DNA of 64,000 nt from Sphyrna mokarran. Its lineage: Eukaryota. The notes beneath the pieces are model-generated. The model was not told the DNA's origin and did not search any database. It worked only from the letters and a program-made list of their open reading frames with translations. The position numbers and the translations under genes are program-made. The stretch spans positions 90,148,001-90,212,000 of the forward strand of contig JAGIQG010000009.1 of NCBI GenBank assembly GCA_024679065.1. The letters are read 5' to 3'. Shown here one piece after another: positions 1,217 to 48,394 of the stretch (its first letter is position 1; every line of letters starts with the position of its first letter).

Positions 1217-1260
1217 TACCAATAGGAATTTAGATCACCAGACTGTCATCTGTTGCTGAG
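1217..1260 (-). promoter_or_regulatory. Distal MHC-II-type X-Y module 1
   Basis: CTCAGCAACAGATG, 20-nt spacer, CCTATTGGTA. GAAACAGGAAGT (IRF-Ets composite) at 1030-1041. Confidence 0.75.
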
Positions 1261-6303: not shown

Positions 6304-6347
6304 CTTAGCAACAGATGACATGTCCCATTTTTAAAATTTCATTGGCT
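6304..6347 (+). promoter_or_regulatory. Distal MHC-II-type X-Y module 2
   Basis: CTTAGCAACAGATG, 20-nt spacer, TTCATTGGCT. NF-kB consensus GGGGATTTTCC at 6444-6454. Confidence 0.75.
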
Positions 6348-9955: not shown

Positions 9956-10000
9956 CTTAGCAACAGATAATAAATTGATATTGGAATGATCTCATTGGTT
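9956..10000 (+). promoter_or_regulatory. Distal MHC-II-type X-Y module 3 (degenerate)
   Basis: CTTAGCAACAGATA, 21-nt spacer, CTCATTGGTT. EICE GGAAGTGAAA on the minus strand at 10201-10210. Confidence 0.6.
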
Positions 10001-28000: not shown

Positions 28001-31000
28001 GTTTGACAAGCTATTTGGGATCTAGCTAAACATTGCAAAGACATTCAGGACCTCCAAGAGGCAACTGGATAGATACATGAATACACAGGGAATAGAGGGA
28101 TATGGATCATGCAGAGGCAAATATTAGATGAGGGGTATCTGTCAGCATGGACTTGGTGGGCTGAAGGGCCTCTTCCTGTGCTGTTCTTTGATGGTTTGAA
28201 TTAACCTATCTTTTATAATTGAAATATTAGCACTGCATTAACTTGTGATTACATATTCACCTCCAGGTGAATTTGTAAATATCCAGTGATTCCACCAACT
28301 ACTTCAGAAAGTGAAGGAAGGAATTTCCTGTCTCTGGTTTTGCCTTCTATAGAAAAGATTCCCAGTGAAATTGCTCTAGTTTTGATTAGTTTCTTCCCTC
28401 ACTGCACCAAGACAAACTAGCTGACTCCCAATACAATATTGCTACTACAAGCAAGGTTAACATGTCAATTTTAGGTTAGAAGCCAAGAAGGCTTAATATT
28501 TGGATGTTCCCAGCCATCCTGATTTTTGTAGATCCTTTTATGAAATCAGACTACCTAGAGTCACATCTGAGGGTACAGGTTTTGTGCTCAGACTGAACAG
28601 AATCTTACCTTTAGCATTCCTCAGCTTCATAATCACTCCAGCCAGCAGGATGATCAGTCCAATTCCAAATCCCACAGCTCCAACAATAATCTTGTGTTTC
28701 TCTGATTTAGTTGTGCTTCCCACTTCTGTACAAGTGAAAAATCCAGGTGAGAGAACACTGATGCATTTTGACACAAGAGCTTGAGGGATTATCAACATGT
28801 GAAAGGAGTTGAAAAAACTTAAAAGGTTCCAACTGGTGTTCTGTAGCACATTGATGCACTGTGAAGGCCCCATAAGTCTGCCACAAAAGTTTAATGTTAA
28901 TGTACATTAAATCTAATTGGTTTTCAGCTGTGGCTGGCATTACCAAATCTTGCTGAACCTCAAGTCTCCATGTGTGCTGGTTAGGAATAGGCTACACATG
29001 CATTTTGGCCCTGATGTAAAAAGATCAGAAGCATGTGTGTCTTTTCCAGCAGGCACAGTTTGTATTACCAACATTAAACATTGAGTACCTTGTGTAGCCC
29101 TTGCCTGGCTGATGTGCACAGGAGATCCCAGGTTCTTTGGGAATTGGAGATGCCAACCATGAAATTGAAGACAAAGACCCCATGCACTTGCACAAAAATG
29201 GAGGCAGAAAGCTGAGAAGTAAAAAAATTCCCAATGTGGGAAGACAGATCAAAAAGGAAAATCTTAAGTTGCTTCTTTAACTTAAATTTGAATATTAAAA
29301 TGGTGACATGTGCTTAGAAGGTTTAGGGATAAAAGGCTTGAGGGTAGTTCAGTTGGTGTGCAGTGACAAAGCAGGATAAGTGGTAATCTATTGCAAATAA
29401 AGCAAGAAAACCAAGTTTGTCACATGGTTTCCAATACATAGGATTCTTTCTCCAAGATGTGACATCTGTAAAAGGAGACTACTAGAGCTAATGTTGAGTA
29501 GTCTGGTATAAGTGTTAGCATCTGAAGACCACTATTGGACTTGCTCATCCTCCAGAAAAGTGCAAATTTGGGAAAGATGATACAATAGAAAAGTGATTAG
29601 AAGCACACCAAAATTGAACAGGTAGAAAACCCAAAGATTAGGGTAAAAATGGACAAACCAGAACCCTTGACAAGGCTCCTCACTGGAGAAAATTTACAGC
29701 AAGGCACAGCAAATTACAAAGTGATGCCAGATAGTGGTTCCTCAGGGATCTGTGCTGAGGTTGTCCTTTGTTCATGTTTGCAGCAATAACTGCTAGAACT
29801 GGCAGATTAGCCTGAAATGTAAACTATTTTCCTCCCCACAGATTGACACCTGCTCAATGTTTCCAGAATTTTGCTTCATGTTGTACTACATAATGTTTCT
29901 TACCCCAGTCTGTGTTCTTGGGTTCATTCAGGCTGCTGTGTTCCACACGACAGGTATATTTATCTCCAGACACAGGTTGATATTGGAGGAGATCCTGAAC
30001 CTGATAGGTCCAGTCACCATCTGATAACAGGGCAGTGTTGATGACACCATTAGGAACTGGCACTCCATTTTTCAACCATGTGACCTCAATCTCAGGAGGA
30101 TAAAATCCAGTAACATGACACAAGAGCAGGGCTGACTGTCCAGAATGTGGTGTTGTTTTAGGTTGGACAGTGACTGTTGGTTTGACTGGAATAGAAACAG
30201 AAGAATTAATTTAGAAATAAAGATCATAGTATAATGGCAGTGTCTGATTTTCCTCTGGCCTTATTACTATTTGTAGAGTCAGGAAGACCTTCAGTCAAGT
30301 CCTTGTCTACAAGTTTTAGCCTTCCAATCAGGCAAGACTGGTAAGTCTTGAGTTGGAATTGGAACAGATCCAAGAAGAGTGGGAACATCTTTAAAGTGTT
30401 GGCTTCAGTAAGATTCATGAAAGTGAAGTGAGGTATCAGGCCTCCTATTGGTCCATTTGTCATCATGCCAAATGGCTCAAACTTGATTAAGAATCTGCAG
30501 TGTAAACTGGAAGTGGGACTAGGTGACACATGAAACAGGGACCAAGGAGTAATTTGATATTCAGCTGGTTTCACCACAAAATAGCTGGGCACTAGTTCAT
30601 CATGCCTTTCATTAAAAATGAAAAGTGCAATAGCCTAATGATACATTTCAGATTAAGTTCAATTTTTGAAGGGGGAATATGACAGTGACCAAGATTCTAG
30701 ATTTAGAACATAGAACACTACAACACAGAACAGGCCCTTTGGCCTTTGATGTTGTGCCAACCAATATAAAAAGCAATGCCCCTCCAAACTAAACTATTCC
30801 CTCTTCCATATACTTATCAACTAACCGCAAATGCCACCAAACTTGGCACAACTGCTGCAGGCAGGGCATTCCACTCCCAAACCACCCTTTGGGTAAAGAA
30901 CCTACCTCTGATATCCGTCCTATAACTATCACACCTTAATTTAAAGCTGTGTCCCCTCGTGCTAGCTTTCTCCATCCTAGGAAAAAGGCTATCACTGTCC

Positions 31001-34000: not shown

Positions 34001-37000
34001 TGTTGAGACAAAATCTTCACTAATGAAGTTCTCAAGCTAACTGCCCAGATACTTGTCCCTTCCCTTCCACTGAAGGGCATCTCTGGCAGGAGACCTTGAG
34101 GCCAGGCTTTCAGGAGTCACCCCACTGACCCCTGTGTGGATCAGTTACACATCTGTCAAGACAACCTGACCAAGGATAGGCATCACCTACACCATCCACT
34201 AGCAGATAGTTACCTCAGTGAAATGTTAGGAGTCAGGATTCTGGGGAAACTCAGGTGAACACCATCCAGCTGCTAATGCTCATCAGATGGAAGCTGAGAC
34301 AGACATGAGATCTGCCAGAGCAAGGAGACAGAGCCCCAGCCAGATGCCAGGCCTCTGGGATCTGTTATCCTGAAGCTGCTGGAATAGAGGGATTGCCAAG
34401 AGGGGCTGTCAGCAACATTGTAGCAACTGCAAGATTTGAGGAGAGTTCCACAGCCTTCAGTAAAAGATGCCAGCAGAGTACATCCAAGGACAGTATCTGA
34501 AGTTGAAAGCATGGGCAAGAAAAAGTCACTGAGGATGTAGGAGCATGCTCAAGACATGATAATGACTACAGGTTTACCTAATCAGAGGGCATTTGAGTGA
34601 CTTGAGTTGGGCTGAGATTTAGAGACCATAATTGAAGGCTTGGATATCATGGGCAGATGTAGTTGGGCTTCCAAGGCTGGTAGAATCAGGTGATTGAGGC
34701 CTCTAGAGCTCATTCCAGCTGAGCCTCTGTCCTATGGAGGGTATCAGGAGCACTACAGGATGAAGGACTGGAGCCAATGCCAGGAGCTTCCTACCCAAGC
34801 CATCTCAGCTTTTCCATGTACCCATTTCCTACACTGGTGAATCATGGGCAGCAGCCTGATCAGGATGGTACAGCTACATCTGTGACACTGGCAAGTTACC
34901 TGTGGTCCAAGTGGTGTCCCCTCCTTAAGAAAAGCCCAAAGGCATCTAAGTCATGGGGTGCAGAAAACAGCTGACCACCTCTACCTCAGACACATCCTGG
35001 GAAGTCACCTAGATGTAGCAATAGGTGATGCTTGATTGAAAAGTTGTAGGGTCACCAAGAGGGAAGTAATTGCAGTTGGGAGTAAATCAAATATTCTTGC
35101 ACCCTATAGTTGTGACTCTGCTGTCTGTAATCCATCTCACTGGGTAGTCAGTTCAAGAATTCCTGCAAGACAGCCTTGCTGACTGCCAGAGTGTCCTTCA
35201 GCCCACCAAGTCTGCACTGACTATACCCACACCAGAGTCATGCAGTTCCCAGTGCATGCACTTGTGTCAGGTGGCTATTGTGGTATTTCAAGTGCTCATC
35301 CAAAAAATAGTATTAGGATACAAGGTCACTGGCCCCCAATGCTGATGCAAGATTCTGGACCAAGCTCTTCTGCCCCATTCTCTGCCAGCACCCCTAGCAT
35401 TGCAGGGCTTGTAATCCCAATACAGCCTGCAAAGGGTAGCATTCTCAGATTGAAACAGGTCTAGGTTCCACCACCCTCCAACAATGCCTAATTATTGGGC
35501 CCACATTGAGGCCTGGGGTACCACTGTGTACCTGAGCACTGGTGTGGAAATCAGAAGTAGGAGTCAGGCTTGTTTCACACTAGTGTAGCAACACTGCAAT
35601 GATTAGTGGGACACTACTTATTTAAGGGCCTTTGTCATCTGCCTGCTCCATTTTTGGTTTCCTTAGCCTCCACATTCTCCTGCCCTGACCCCTTCTCAAG
35701 GGATGTTTGTAGAAGTCTCCTTGCTGCTGTGCCAGGTTGTGGCATTCAGCAGACCATGATGCAGGAGACCCTGGGGACTGTACTGGAGGGTACTACCAGA
35801 GCAGCTTAGACAGCAGAATAGCAGCTTGTTATTGGAAGAATGACATTGAGGAAAGGGCCTTTGTCCTGGACTGCCTTCCAATCTCCACTACCAGACCATC
35901 TCAGATTTTGTAGCATGTGATGGTATAGCAACCACAATTTTCATAATGCATCCCTTGTAATGCATGATCTATTTGAGGTTGACTATGAAATAGAGGCTAT
36001 AAATTTGTTTCCTGGAAAGCTGTGCTAGAATAGTTTGGATGGTCAAGTATTCAGAATCTGTTCACTGAAGAGGCGAGTTGACCCATCAACTCAACTGACT
36101 GAAAGCCTGCCTAATTCCCATAACCCTGCAGATTTACCATGCTAATCCACTTAACATACATATTTTTGTACTATGGGAGGAAACTGGAGCAAACCCCACA
36201 CGGTGAGAACTCTACACATTCATCCAAAGCCAGAACCAGAATCAAACCTGGGTCCCAGGCATTGAGGTAAAAGTGCAAATCACTAACCCTAACCCAGTGG
36301 TACCCCAGGCCTCAGTGGGCCCAAAAAGCTCATCTCTGCTTCACATTCCTCATATACCATTGGAGGAAGGAGCCCAAATAACCATCAGTTCCAGAATTGA
36401 GACTGTGCACTGGTGCTGTTCATATTCCTCATGTGGCCCTAATGGGACTGGTGTCTCCTGAAACAGTGACAGGAGCCAGTGCCTCAAGGCACAGGACTAT
36501 ACTGAAGATGGAGTGAGACTATTTGGGTAAGAGTTTACTGAGCATTCCTCCCACACAGCTGTACCTGCCTCTGCTTACAGAGAAATGCCAGTTATTCCTG
36601 GAAAGAAACTCAGGCTTCAGGTATTCTTCACCGTGTTGTATTTTTAACCTCACTGACTAGAGGAAAACCCTCAGCAGGAGGGGGGAGTAGAATTGCTGCC
36701 ATTCTGTGTCCAGATGTGTTAAGGGGGGGGAGTGTGTTTGGGAGGAGGGTGGGTGATTTTGCCCAGAGCGGGATTCAGGAAGCTCAGCCCCTCAGAGACA
36801 GGGAGCTCCCAGAGAGAGAGTCCCGGGGACTCAGCAGCTCCGGGCACAGGACGATCCCAGTACAGGCCGCTGGTGACATTTAATCCCCCCCCCCCCGGGG
36901 CTCTCACCTCTCCGGGACAGAACACTTTCGTCGATGGGAACGTTGGTTTCACACACGGTGATGCCCTCCTGGTACCGCGCTTCCGCCCGATCATTCCATG

Positions 37001-40000
37001 TCTTCACATTCCCCTCCATCCCGCTCTTCACCGCGATGTACTTCCTCTGGTTAAAGTCGAAATACGCGACCAGCTCTTGATCATAGACATACTCCTCAAT
37101 ATAGGTCCAGCTCCTGGTGTCGTTAAAATCACATCCGTGAATGTAGTAAAAGGAGTGAGCCCCTGTGAGAGAGAGACTGAGTTACTGTCTGACAGAGAGA
37201 GAGAGCCCAGAGACCCGGGAAAGGGGATCTTCCCCACCCACCCAGTCCCATCACAACATGGGGAAGGGGTGCAGCTCTCAGACCCCCCCAAACTCCGGGA
37301 AAACCCCACATTGTCTCAATAATCTCCAGGAAATCACACCCTGACCCTGTGTAGGGACAAAAATCTGGGCACGCGGTTAAAATCCAACAGGTTTAACTTG
37401 TGTTGATGTCTTATTGTATCCACCCCAATCCAACACCGACACCTCCGCCTTGTGTAGAGAGGGTCAGGATAGCTGTGGGGTTACCCCTTACCCCAGAGAT
37501 TCAACACACTGGAAGTTAATCCCATTCCTGGGGATAATAACCCATGGGAATTAAGGTGACAGACACTAAGTCATCCATGATAGATGTAGCTGTAATCTCC
37601 CAAAGAGAGGGAGATTGAAACTGATCGGAGGACAGTCCCAGTGAGTGCAGAACATTACAGGATGGTGGTCAGTGAAAAAGATAAAATCTCCATAATCCCA
37701 CAAACATTTACTCTCCCTTAAGATGCAGAGAAGTCAGGAGGAGGAACAGAACAGGACTTCAGTTCTGGCCAGATTTAAACAAGGTGAGCACTAGTTCAGC
37801 ACTCAACATGTGCAGAGAGGAAGGGAGATCATATTTCTGGCTTGGGTTACTGGAGTCTGCACATTGTGGGAGGAAATTTGGGCAGTCTGAAGCATTCATT
37901 AGGTATATTAGTGTACTTGAACAAGCAGCAGAGTATAATAATCAGGGGGAATTGCCAGTTAAGCCGACATGATAATAAAAATAAGTCAAGGGAGCAGGAA
38001 ATGGATCTCATTGATGAAATGAGTTCAGAGCAGGAGAAGAAATGGGTGGGAATAAAGACCAAAGAATTAGTGAGGAGCAGGAAAAACCAATGCTCAACAT
38101 GGAGTTCGTCTGAAATACAGCAAGGAAAAACTAACGGAGACAGTATCTAATGAAACTATCTGCTGCTCAGCCATAGCACAGGTCCCCAAAAGCAGTTAGA
38201 GGTCAAACCAATTCTACTGTAGAGTTTTTACAATATATTAAAGTCTGAAAGATGACAAATCAAAGTGTAGTGATAGTCACTTTCTCCAAAGATAAAGATG
38301 CATTGAGATGTTTCATACTGTGAAACATCTCTATCTTTGGAGAAAGTGGTGGTCAGTGAAAAAGTTTCTTTCACATACCACCATCCTGTAATGTTCTTCA
38401 AATGACCAAACTACCAGGTACCTCAAGATTCTTCAACATTAATATATTAGGATGAAGCAGTCTGAGGTTTAGCTGGTTGCCAGCCCCTAGTGGCCTTTTA
38501 CCATTGCACCTTGGCAGCAGCTACCCCAAACATTTAGTGCTTCCTTCAGCATGTAATTCTGGGCTTTGTAACATGTCATCTTGCAAGATTCAGTTTCAGA
38601 CAGACCAAAGAGCATCTTTTTACTGATTTGATGACCCTCCAGTAGCAGATATAATAAAGTCTGTCCCTTGGACTTGGGACAGAATAGACAAGTTGAGTAA
38701 TCACCAGTAACCATTGCCATAAACTGTTCCTTGGGGTGCAATATTCTAGTGTTGCTAATCATTGTAGAATATGGGCAAGTAAGCAATCGGAGTATAACTG
38801 AAAAAACAAAAGATTATGACCCTGCATTGCAAACCTGTGGGCAGATCCTCCTTTTCATTCTGTCATCCTGGCCTCACCTTTCCATGCCTTATCACTGCTT
38901 TAAGGCCATTATGTTTCCAGTTTTGAAATAATGGAAATTAACCATAATATTCACTCCATGGCATTGATAGATCTGGAAGCATTTCCACCATCTGTAGCTG
39001 TACATCTAATGTTCTATTTGTAAAAGAGTGCTCAGTGCAGTGATCAATTTTTATGCCTTTCATAACAGCTGCATGAATATATAAATTTGCAGCTCAGCTC
39101 ACTGGCTGGAAGTGAATGTAAACCTTTCCACATTCTGTACCTGGAGAGATGGAACCATAGAAACAGACTATTCAGCCCAATGGACTACATAAATGCACAA
39201 AGGCAAGCCATTCATTCAAATCCCATCTTGCAAATCCCTGCACTTCAGATGCAGATCCAGGTGCTTTTCAAATGAGTTTAGTCTATCTATAGTCTATCTA
39301 TAATCTATCATGTGTATTACTATACATGTAAAGTAATGTTTGTGTACTTTACAGAAAACAGTGCAGAGAAAGACCACCTTAATGCAAGATAGAACTGTTC
39401 AAAAGTCTGATGGAAACAGGGAAACTGAGTCAGTTGGTATGTGTCCTCAGACTTGAATCTTTGATTGACAGTGGCATATATGTTTGGGGTGCCTGGGGTT
39501 TGATTATGCTGGTTACTTTACTAAGGCAGCAGGAAGCATAGACAGTCACTGGGAGGCTGGTTTGCATGATGGACTGGCTTCATTCACAACCCTTAGTTTA
39601 TTGAAGTCTTGGACAAACCAGGAGCCATACCAAGCTTATGATGCAACCAGAAAGAATGCTTGCTATTGAGCATCTGTAAAGTTGGAGTCATGCCAAATGA
39701 CCTTAATCTCCAGAGAAAGTAAAAGTGTCAGTGGGTTTTAACTATAGTGCCAGTATGGAGAGAACAGGATAGATTGTTGATTTGGACATCTGAAAACTTA
39801 AATCTCAAACACTTCTACTTCATCCCCATTGATGGAAACAGGGGCATACCTTCTATCATACTGAGGCTGATTAATGTCTCCAATGTAACAAAATTTGTCT
39901 TTGCACCAGTTTCTGTACTGTCATATCATTGTTAGAGATCCAACCTACTAGGATGGTGGCATCAACAAACTTGATTAGACTTGGAGAATTTGGCCAGTCA

Positions 40001-46000: not shown

Positions 46001-47378
46001 TTCTTGAATAACTTGAGTGCCTGCCTCCACCACTTTACTTGGCAACACATTCCATACCCCCACCACCCTCTGAAAAAAACTCCCTCTAGCATCCAAATTA
46101 TACCTTAAGCCCAACCTAAGCCTGTGACCCCTCATGCTATTCAATTCCATTCTAGGAAAAAGCTTAACCCTGTTTACTCTATCTATACCTCAATCTTGTG
46201 CACCTCCATTAGATCTCCTCTAAGTCTACATCTTTAAGGAAAAAAGTGTCCCAATTTACCTAACCTCTCATAACTCAGACCTTCCATACCAGGCAGCATC
46301 CTGGTAAACCTCCTCTGCACTCTCTCCACATCCTTCAGGTAGTAAGGCAACCAGAACTGGATACAGTATTCCAAATGAGGTCTAACCAACATTTTATACA
46401 ACTGCAACATTAACAGCTAGCTCTTGTACTCTATACCCCTTCCTATAAAGGCTAGCATACAATATGCTTTCTTCACAACCTTTTCCACTTGCTCTGCCAC
46501 CTTCAGAGACTTGTGCACCTGCACCCCTAGGTCCCTCTGCATTTCTATACTCTTAATAGTTCTACTCTATCATATATCTCCCCCTACATTCTTTCTCCCA
46601 AAATGCATCACCTTGCATTTATCAGGATTGAATTCCATCTAGCATGGCCAATTCACTTAACCTACCCATCTTTGTATTGAGAGGGGAAACCCAGTCACTC
46701 AAGGTCACTGAACCTGACACTGAGGCAGCAGTACTATCTACTAGTCCTGGGTAGAAATCCTTTTCCACCCAAAGGGTAGTGAGCATCTGGAACTCACCAA
46801 CTGAAGCAGCAGTAGAAACAGGAATTTCAACATTTCCATGATCATTTAACACAGCAACAGACCAAGTACTACAAGGGGATTAGCAAAGATAGTAACAAAT
46901 AAAAAATACTCAAATTTCAGTAAGTCTGAAAGCACCTATGGTTCAAATAGAGCCAGTATTGAGTACAACAAACCCTTCACCCAGGGTCAAAACGGTGACT
47001 GTATTGTCTCTCTACAGATACTGTCAGAGCAGCTGAGATTTTCCAGCATTTTCTGCTGGAGATTCTAACATCCATACTAATATAGTTGTTTGATGGCCAA
47101 CATAGACACGATGGCCGGAATAGTCGTTTTCTGTGCTGTAACGACGATTCTTCATTGCGTGGCTGATCAGTTTCATTTGCAAATTTCCCCAATTATGCTT
47201 CGCGTTTAAATCTAAACTCATGAAGATAACTTATTCCCTCTGCCTACCATCCCCGCTCCTTAACTGAGTTCTTACCAGCTCCGCTCTCTCTCTCTCCATT
47301 GAAGATGAACAGGCTCCAGATGAGGAGAGAGATGCGGATCCAGAGGGATCGGGAGCCGCTCTCTGTAAACACATACAT
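18977..47378 (-). CDS. mhc2b: MHC class II beta chain gene, 6 coding exons: 47378-47276, 37162-36908, 30185-29904, 28725-28609, 26406-26377, 19002-18977 (813 nt, 270 aa)
   Basis: Manual splicing gives one uninterrupted ORF: leader, beta1, beta2 (Ig-C1), CP/TM and two cytoplasmic exons. All introns are GT..AG and phase 1, as in class II beta genes. Confidence 0.95.
19135..21005 (-). mobile_element. Heavily micro-deleted CR1 in intron 5
   Basis: KTLADRIKENPKPFYRYVK and collinear similarity to the 14937 element. Confidence 0.85.
22080..22500 (+). mobile_element. Penelope-like RT remnant, followed by a minus-strand CR1 tail (~22500-22890)
   Basis: aatttatcaattttgcttccaaattccacccc and tggtccatctgaccctttcccttccttgacctctat resemble shark Penelope RT. 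Confidence 0.6.
23232..23430 (-). mobile_element. Truncated 3' end related to the 5S-CR1 element body
   Basis: Shares the diagnostic 3' UTR stretch (aaaaagcaatg..ccctc..aaccattcc) with 16591 and 30704. Confidence 0.65.
23440..24325 (+). mobile_element. Decayed Rex/Babar LINE
   Basis: Collinear with 8100-9100 but with many small deletions. Confidence 0.75.
25635..25820 (-). mobile_element. HE1-like SINE (decayed); another copy lies at ~36110-36290
   Basis: gccagaatcaaacctggctccctggtgctgtgaggca is the reverse complement of the SINE tRNA head. Confidence 0.7.
26377..26406 (-). CDS. mhc2b: MHC IIB exon 5, cytoplasmic (AILDSSNHGP)
   Basis: 30-nt phase 1/1 exon with branch ctaac, acceptor ttttctttcag| and donor |gtaagt; in frame. 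Confidence 0.8.
28609..28725 (-). CDS. mhc2b: MHC IIB exon 4, connecting peptide and transmembrane segment (EVGSTTKSEKHKIIVGAVGFGIGLIILLAGVIMKLRNAK)
   Basis: Class II beta TM glycine pattern GxxGxxxGxxxxxxG. Acceptor tacag|, donor |gtaag. Confidence 0.95.
29904..30185 (-). CDS. mhc2b: MHC IIB exon 3, beta2 Ig-C1 domain
   Basis: 282-nt exon with motifs LLCHVTGFYPPEIEVTWLKNG, DGDWTYQ and YTCRVEHSSL. Acceptor ttccag|, donor |gtaag. Confidence 0.97.
30704..31076 (-). mobile_element. Second copy of the 5S-CR1 element body, lacking the 5S head, in intron 2
   Basis: Collinear with 16591-16975 and ending at the same gaaaacaaa junction. Confidence 0.85.
31270..31870 (+). mobile_element. Penelope-like element remnant (RT and GIY-YIG)
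   Basis: Decayed GIY-YIG-like stretch (acatgcactttctacaatttagtagacagtatttggtgttcc...tacattggg). Confidence 0.65.
33330..35900. mobile_element. Decayed PIF/Harbinger DNA transposon (Myb/SANT-like gene on +, transposase C-terminus on -)
   Basis: QCCRKIND on plus (~33680); CCLSCSGSTLQYSPQ on minus (~35700-35830) resembles Harbinger RFRCLDRSGGALQYSP. Confidence 0.6.
36908..37162 (-). CDS. mhc2b: MHC IIB exon 2, beta1 peptide-binding domain (GAHSFYYIHGCDFNDTRSW...WNDRAEARYQEGITVCETNVPIDESVLSRR)
   Basis: Acceptor tctcacag|, donor |gtgag, 255 nt. Has the two conserved Cys, an NDT sequon, and the W61 and N82 equivalents. Confidence 0.95.
39330..40140 (-). mobile_element. Decayed Rex/Babar-like LINE fragment
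   Basis: Reverse-complement PQGCVL and KFVDAT remnants. Confidence 0.5.
40925..45360 (-). mobile_element. Near full-length CR1 LINE in intron 1: ORF1 (Zn-finger-like and esterase-like, ~44171-45154) and ORF2 (APE and RT, 41416-44198), both frameshifted
   Basis: ORF1 CVRCHMW..HIC and ILVGDGMV..VIVHVG. APE VAVTETWL, YRPP, GDFNFP, LDLVL, SDHN. RT motifs complete. Confidence 0.95.
45431..46640 (-). mobile_element. 5'-truncated CR1 (SINE-containing 3' UTR family)
   Basis: C-terminal ORF2 remnants and 3' UTR collinear with the 9108 and 48653 copies. Confidence 0.88.
47276..47378 (-). CDS. mhc2b: MHC IIB exon 1, leader MYVFTESGSRSLWIRISLLIWSLFIFNGERESGA
   Basis: ATG at 47378, hydrophobic core, donor G|gtaag in phase 1 joining exon 2 in frame. 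TATA-like, CCAAT and X boxes lie directly upstream. Confidence 0.88.
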
Positions 47379-47434
47379 GTCACCCACGGCAGCTCCAACA
47401 CAGACTGAACACCCGGACTAAAACGCGCCAGGGC

Positions 47435-47828
47435 TTTAAATAGAGATACTGACCAATCACAACGGAACATAAAGATTGACCAATCACATAAAAATACACT
47501 GACCAATAAGCAGCTGGAAAATCACCCAATCAACTCCATATATCGGGGAACAGGGACCAATCAGCATCAAGAACACGTGTAGCGGGTCAGAGGAGCAAAT
47601 CAGAGCTGGGAACGGGTAGCCAATCAAAAGTGAAATAGCGAGGAAATAAACTAATCATAGGCGAGCATGTGTGGTCACCTGGTCTCTGTTTGATTATGAA
47701 CCAATCAGAACAGAGAATGGTTCCGCTCGTTGGCTCTGTAGATAAAGGAACCAACCAGAGTCGGGTCAGGCAAATCATCATCAGTATCATCAGTTGCTAG
47801 GTGGAATTGGGCGATTCATTTCAATTTC
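47435..47828 (-). promoter_or_regulatory. Class II beta promoter region: TATA-like box (47435-47442), CCAAT array, X box (47788-47801), IRF-type motifs
   Basis: TATTTAAA about 60 nt upstream of the ATG. CCAAT at 47453, 47480, 47503, 47526, 47557, 47620 and 47701. X1 box CCTAGCAACTGATG. GAAATTGAAA at 47819-47828. Confidence 0.8.
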
Positions 47829-48394
47829 TATGTAGGCTAGTCAGTGGGCGACAGCAATGTTTTCACTGTAGGAAGCTGCATTTGGAAGGGGAAACAATCA
47901 GAGGGATTCACTCATTCATTCAAAGTTAGGCCCTGTTGAAGTGTGTGCTCCTGCACAGTGGCTGGTATGCTGAAAGCTGTGACTCCTCGTCAGTGTTAGC
48001 TTCTGAGAATTCTTCGGGGCTGGAAAAACTCAAGTCTTGACTGGAGGACGCTCTGGATTGGTTCTCAGATGTGCTTTCAAAAAAAAAGATTTCAGGGATC
48101 TTAAGAAGCAGGAAGCATAACTCACATAAGTGTACTGGATCCTTATTTAGATTATCAGCACTCGCTCACAGTCAACACAGAGTGCTCAGTCTTCCCTGAC
48201 CAGTTGGAGGGCTCTTTCTTCAAAGTCAGTCGGGATTTATATCCTTAGCATTCTGCTGTCAGGGACAGATAGCTTGAGTGTCAAAGATATGTACGTTAGG
48301 TCAGATTAGCTATGGTAAAGTATTCAGGGTAATGGATATAGGGTGGAGAGCCTGAGTAGGACTTACAGTGAGTAGGTGTAAATTTCATAGGTCA

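Follow-up and report, generated by a model that had tools for sequence, protein, structure and literature searches.

An altered X-Y module in the promoter of an MHC class II beta gene of Sphyrna mokarran: a derived variant, probably one of two alleles

The window (the whole stretch of 64,000 nucleotides that was analysed) carries on its minus strand an MHC class II beta gene in whose promoter the X-Y module contains a perfect 9-bp tandem duplication and a Y box with a GTTGG core. With a probability of about 0.5, this is a real, derived promoter variant, likely one of two alleles, in which the module is predicted to be weakened but working.

The gene was found to be intact over exons 1-4, with an open frame and AG/GT splice ends, and a pseudogene or frameshifted copy was discarded on these grounds. 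The MHC_II_beta and C1-set exons lie downstream of the module and in frame, which supports its earlier assignment to a class II beta gene. The features are listed in Table 1.

Table 1. Features of the window gene, of its promoter and of the distal modules (positions in the window).
Feature	Position	Strand	Basis or remark
Exon 1, signal peptide	47276..47378	-	open frame, GT donor, in phase with exon 2
Exon 2, beta-1 peptide-binding domain	36908..37162	-	Pfam MHC_II_beta 21.9 bits (cut-off 20.9); AG/GT ends
Exon 3, beta-2 C1-set domain	29904..30185	-	Pfam C1-set E 1e-25
Exon 4, connecting peptide and transmembrane segment	28609..28725	-	reading frame, splice ends
TATA-like element	47435..47442	-	common to three intact beta promoters
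Seven same-orientation inverted CCAAT boxes and two decayed	47453..47705	-	sequence
CCAAT core starts	47705, 47624, 47561, 47530, 47507, 47484, 47457	-	
Variant Y box, GTTGG core (CCAAC on opposite strand)	47749..47758	-	aligns to beta1 canonical Y
9-bp perfect tandem duplication over X1 3' end and X2	47777..47794	-	sequence
X box (X1, RFX-type site, continuing into X2)	47788..47801	-	14-mer, matrix score 20.5
Distal X-Y module, X end to ATTGG 23 nt	6304..6345	+	copies in paralogous unit and other contig
Distal X-Y module, 24 nt	9956..9998	+	counterpart on other contig damaged
Distal X-Y module, 23 nt	1219..1260	-	sequence

Read on the minus strand from 47801 to 47749, the module consists of X, two identical 9-mers in tandem (47794-47786 and 47785-47777) and a Y-like box, exactly as the first-pass annotation had described it. 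The X 14-mer showed no mismatch to the X consensus, and its score on a matrix built from the genome's other modules falls within their range of 16.6-24.1. In the Y-like 10-mer (47758-47749) the variant G stands at 47755, between flanks that match those of the canonical beta1 Y. The Y pentamer stands 32 nt from the end of X (a 29-nt spacer). When one 9-mer is taken out, this distance becomes 23 nt (a 20-nt spacer), the geometry of the distal modules at 6304 (+) and 1260 (-), as had been claimed; the third, at 9956 (+), has 24 nt. Three exact tandem duplications with a unit of 9-12 nt occur in the 64 kb, that of the module being one and a C run another.

The module lies about 410 nt upstream of the ATG in the standard orientation 5' of a class II gene, and its X1 matches the RFX-type consensus with a score in the natural range. 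The Y box is not a perfect inverted CCAAT and the X-to-Y distance departs from the fixed 22-24 nt. Because these two defining features fail, the module is not a canonical member; on its sequence, it appears to work like, or to descend from, a class II X-Y module. A second RFX site created by the duplication was rejected, as the shifted register scores -6.7 and yields no second X1. By eye, no S box was evident upstream of any beta or alpha X; an S-like word was visible in the distal modules by the same means.

Four beta promoters were compared. At the Y position beta1 has ATTGG at 23 nt, beta3 and a beta pseudogene have ACTGG at 23 nt, and the window gene has GTTGG at 32 nt. The 9-bp duplication is absent from all three others. 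Since these promoters have neither change, the duplication and the A-to-G change in Y are, by this comparison, derived, in line with the earlier proposal. Both 9-mer copies carry an A-to-T change in X that is private to the window gene, so the duplication arose after that change. It would have arisen when replication slipped on a short TGA run in the already diverged lineage. Indels of 9-11 bp accounted for 23 of 573 in homologous blocks; an indel of a size that keeps the phase is uncommon by chance, an argument made after the fact. The X box differs from that of beta1 at 3 of 14 positions, a raw 21% against an upstream background of 20%. In 20,000 simulations with three random changes in X, 0.06% attained the score of the window gene and 1.9% the weakest natural score; this test is partly circular, the matrix taking in beta1 and a module with an identical X.

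The spacing of X and Y was surveyed along C1548, of which 840 kb around the window were read and the first 780 kb used for motif scans. A genome-wide pattern search gave 14 matches, against 0 with a reversed control; seven of the 14 lie in the MHC contig, six being 42 nt long and that of the window 51. Among 64 X-matrix matches in the 780 kb, 15 have ATTGG at 22-24 nt, four at 13 nt, three at 10 nt, and one each at 54 and 65 nt, and ten shuffles gave a single match in total at 22-24 nt. These counts show spacing regularity and not independent significance, because these same modules served to train the matrix and many belong to about six families of copies, paralogous and haplotype duplicates among them. 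One invariant canonical module (22 nt, placed 166 nt before the ATG) is common to the three alpha promoters, within an ordinary compact layout. The 13-nt matches form an X-Y family with a perfect Y, one turn shorter than the standard 23 (C1548:89875479, 90121645, 90145090 and 90411093, all +); the third of them, at 90145090 (+), is some 2.9 kb short of the first position of the window. About 4 Mb away on the same MHC contig, at C1548:85,891,196-85,891,237 (-), a canonical X-20-Y module stands by itself. The distal module at 9956 has its counterpart on the other contig at C1548:90,422,343 (+), where X is altered and Y is gone.

Between the module and the TATA-like box, about 345 nt apart, lies the CCAAT array (7 boxes observed, 0.47 expected; none of 20,000 Markov resamples reached 7). 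The array and the distal modules on which the first-pass annotation had supposed expression to rely thus exist, the three canonical distal modules being 38-47 kb away. Same-strand inverted CCAAT boxes in this interval number 7 in the window gene, 11 in beta1 (Y counted) and 6 in beta3; the beta promoters thus have 6-11 of them, and each alpha promoter one Y box. Compared with beta1, 4 of 50 positions differ in the cores and 62 of 291 outside them (p=0.017, Y box counted). Neither half of the array is significant alone (p=0.08 and 0.24), the distal cores differing at 3 of 25 positions against 50 of 186 outside. Both the window gene and beta3 retain all five proximal boxes intact and have lost boxes from the distal part.

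CIITA is recruited by RFX, CREB and NF-Y, whose binding to X1, X2 and Y is cooperative (PMC4381081). In the window promoter RFX would still bind X1. Of the X2 copies, one would stay beside X1 and the other as far from Y as it was originally. Binding of NF-Y to the CCAAC box would be weak, at a site one turn further along and facing nearly the same side of the helix, so that CIITA recruitment would be reduced, not lost, and the CCAAT array and distal modules would carry part of the output. A weakened rather than a dead module is predicted because X1 is kept, X2 is present in both contexts, Y lies at 22+10 and the base changed is the one that NF-Y best tolerates.

On two points the damage had initially been overstated. 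NF-Y does generally require the perfect pentamer; however, the final T of CCAAT, the base changed here, is not read base-specifically, and NF-Y binding of CCAAC has been reported in a parvovirus promoter (PMC5216769). Likewise, the spacer is indeed 29 nt long, yet the additional 9 nt stay within one turn of the 22-24 nt range: 32 is 22+10, although measured from the beta norm of 23 the shift is +9. Several observations weigh against a weakened allele. Beta3, whose frame is open, and the beta pseudogene carry ACTGG, changed at a position that is not described as tolerated. The X of the window gene diverges from beta1 at the background rate, the distal cores give only p=0.08, and no S box is evident at the beta X. 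Human spacing is tight: the class II XY motifs all measure 47-49 bp, those of human CIITA-regulated genes, which keep this phasing, 46-50 bp with one exception of 63 bp, and the section of PMC4381081 on CIITA-regulated genes names no regulated example one turn longer (PMC4381081).

The ACTGG of the open-frame beta3 suggests that the Y box may simply not matter. The X-linked Y box would then be dispensable in this promoter and decaying neutrally, the CCAAT array and the distal modules would provide the function, and both changes would be without effect, a reading we regard as unlikely but serious. It agrees with the presence of ATTGG at Y in only one of the four beta promoters (two others having ACTGG), with an array that, in the window gene and in its probable allele alike, has kept its five proximal boxes intact and lost distal ones, and with the p value of the distal cores (0.08). 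The laxity is specific to beta, since all three alpha promoters hold the canonical module. On the other hand, the X score stays strong, and both lesions of the window gene are of a tolerated kind (about one turn; final T). Beta3 itself argues against free decay of the module. Its promoter (528 nt, against 674 in beta1) is 146 nt shorter, for the most part because about 145 bp of the array were apparently lost, in the direction we infer, between two similar CCAAT units. The loss would have fused the Y spacer with a CCAAT unit from further down the array, and Y stayed at the normal 23 nt from X. The following ATTGG, at 82 nt in the window gene and at 70 nt in beta3, is out of phase for a replacement of Y, because it falls about 5.6 and 4.5 turns past the canonical position; the box at 47705 is by this arithmetic an unlikely substitute Y.

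A module that is fully active was also considered, either because the added turn and a CCAAC in optimal flanks are harmless or because the second X2 compensates. HLA-DRA reporters, reportedly studied by Vilen in 1991, are said to tolerate whole-turn insertions, and the 22+10 arithmetic and the CCAAC bound in the viral promoter point the same way. Full activity nevertheless appears improbable, as NF-Y generally wants a perfect pentamer (PMC5216769), the shift from the beta norm is 9 bp and not 10-11, and human class II spacing is confined to 47-49 bp (PMC4381081).

The proposed status as one of two alleles rests on the structure of the locus, where C1548 carries a tandem array of three beta genes and three likely alpha genes. 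A 100-N gap at C1548:90,390,371 separates two contigs. The start of the contig that follows matches 90,125,200 at 99.9%, and the last 36,919 bp of the preceding contig match 90,589,283-90,626,196 with 14 mismatches and 3 gaps; both ends at the gap sit in tandem repeats. In run X1 the contigs of the window gene had depths of 7.0, 7.9 and 5.8, and the contig assigned to beta3, by where it departs from the alignment, 6.3; contigs with beta1 variants (36 of 37 matched) had 11.3 and 14.9. Contig depth is a weak measure that gives no copy number, and two of the eight contigs listed for a control locus were also near 6 (15, 16.5, 6.4, 5.9, 20.1, 17, 11.3 and 12.4). Because the contigs dovetail across the gap and the depth is about half, the window gene and beta3 (C1548:90,454,957, -) are very likely alleles and not paralogues. 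C1548:90,125,200-90,390,370 and 90,390,471-90,626,196 are then probably a false duplication, two haplotypes scaffolded in tandem, between which the distal modules, too, may differ.

The regulatory polymorphism put forward by the first-pass annotation is therefore probably right, in that the unduplicated state is found on what appears to be the other haplotype of the same animal. Of the unduplicated ATTGG form that was sought, beta3 has the normal spacer, while its Y reads ACTGG. Beta3 being the probable sister allele, the Y box is probably lesioned on both haplotypes of the locus. No near-identical unduplicated allele was present among the run X1 contigs at 47664-47825, an absence that carries no weight, since contigs drop variants.

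It is quite improbable that the window gene is instead a true third tandem paralogue, possibly hemizygous and becoming minor or silent. Such a gene would fit the copies between the dovetailing ends, which are largely unalignable over the class II genes (a core of about 200 kb), and the promoters of the window gene and beta3, which differ at 13-36% of aligned sites depending on the segment. Exons 2-3 of the window gene are also nearer to beta1 (98%) than to beta3 (94% and 91%), and catshark offers a precedent in a hemizygous, weakly expressed beta locus (PMC11958417; PMC9992475). However, the gap lies exactly at the junction, flanked by contig ends that are 99.9% identical to the other contig and run out in tandem repeats, and the frame of the window gene is open through exon 4. 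Sharks are, moreover, reported to have very old allelic lineages (PMC8010645) and, in catshark, patchwork conversion with allelic lineages common to several loci (PMC11958417; PMC9992475).

An assembly error is scarcely credible: although the short TGA run at the duplication is a place where indel errors can occur, a separately assembled 747-nt contig of run X1 covers 47298-48044, and with it the unchanged duplication, with 0 differences and 0 gaps, which excludes an artefact of assembly in what may be the assembled individual rather than an independent animal.

Some further observations were made on the other class II genes. Patchwork homogenisation is seen with beta1, with which beta3 shares exon 1 and the 5' region (1 of 157 positions differs) and the window gene exons 2-3. 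At C1548:89,929,357-89,929,638 (-), at the end of the beta-2 domain, beta1 has Leu where the other two have Trp. The beta pseudogene is a remnant at C1548:90,075,872-90,074,968 (-) with a stop in exon 2; it keeps an X-20-Y arrangement with ACTGG. A lone beta transmembrane exon lies near C1548:89,849,400.

Promoter polymorphism in the MHC is already known as a kind. What is new here is that the window gene and beta3, on dovetailing contigs with a 36.9 kb overlap, are probably two such alleles, which would extend MHC expression-level polymorphism to sharks. The class II phasing rule rests mainly on engineered HLA-DRA reporters, and human spacing varies within about 2 bp. A natural allele about one turn long, beside a conserved module one turn short, would make the rule testable on evolved sequences, and in the oldest lineage with an MHC. 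Should the change prove neutral, it would be a promoter indel of the ordinary sort. It is a doubtful, more far-reaching suggestion that the beta layout, with X-Y far upstream behind a CCAAT array, frees the Y box, and that ancient haplotypes hold differently tuned promoter alleles under balancing selection for expression level, in a natural phasing series of working modules at 13 (one turn short), 22-24 (standard) and 32 nt (one turn long). The class II gene count of the assembly is probably inflated by the unpurged haplotype, with two beta/alpha pairs and not three.

Literature searches, covering few subscription journals, returned no paper on shark class II promoters and nothing usable on class II Y-box alleles. 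A box that reads CCAAC is present in the promoter of human delta-globin (HBD). That case differs in being fixed between paralogues and in lying outside the MHC enhanceosome (PMC10270685). In mouse H2-T10 and H2-T22, an NLR transactivator binds MHC promoters although Y is off its usual 20-22 bp; these are class I genes, the transactivator is NLRC5 and Y lies at 48 bp (PMC4374748).

The locus resembles chicken BF1, an MHC duplicate in which the promoter lesions vary from allele to allele, and the BF1 deletions between short direct repeats resemble the loss between CCAAT units in beta3. BF1 is, in contrast, a class I gene for which a tenfold lower RNA level was measured, whereas the shark locus is known here from its sequence (PMC10514180). 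In the type of change the module resembles the class II proximal promoters of cetaceans (dolphin), which have tandem duplications of 11-22 bp and promoter alleles; those duplications sit upstream of S or at the T box, and none that PMC6155461 describes in the relevant passages alters the X-to-Y distance (PMC6155461). Compared with the vertebrate S-X-Y module (PMC4381081), the window promoter likewise has an X1-like element, one at the X2 position and a Y-like one 5' of a class II gene, with order and orientation unchanged. It differs by a 9-bp longer spacing, a CCAAC Y box, the lack of a clear S box and a position far from the TATA-like box behind a CCAAT array, unlike the ordinary layout that the alpha genes of this shark have.
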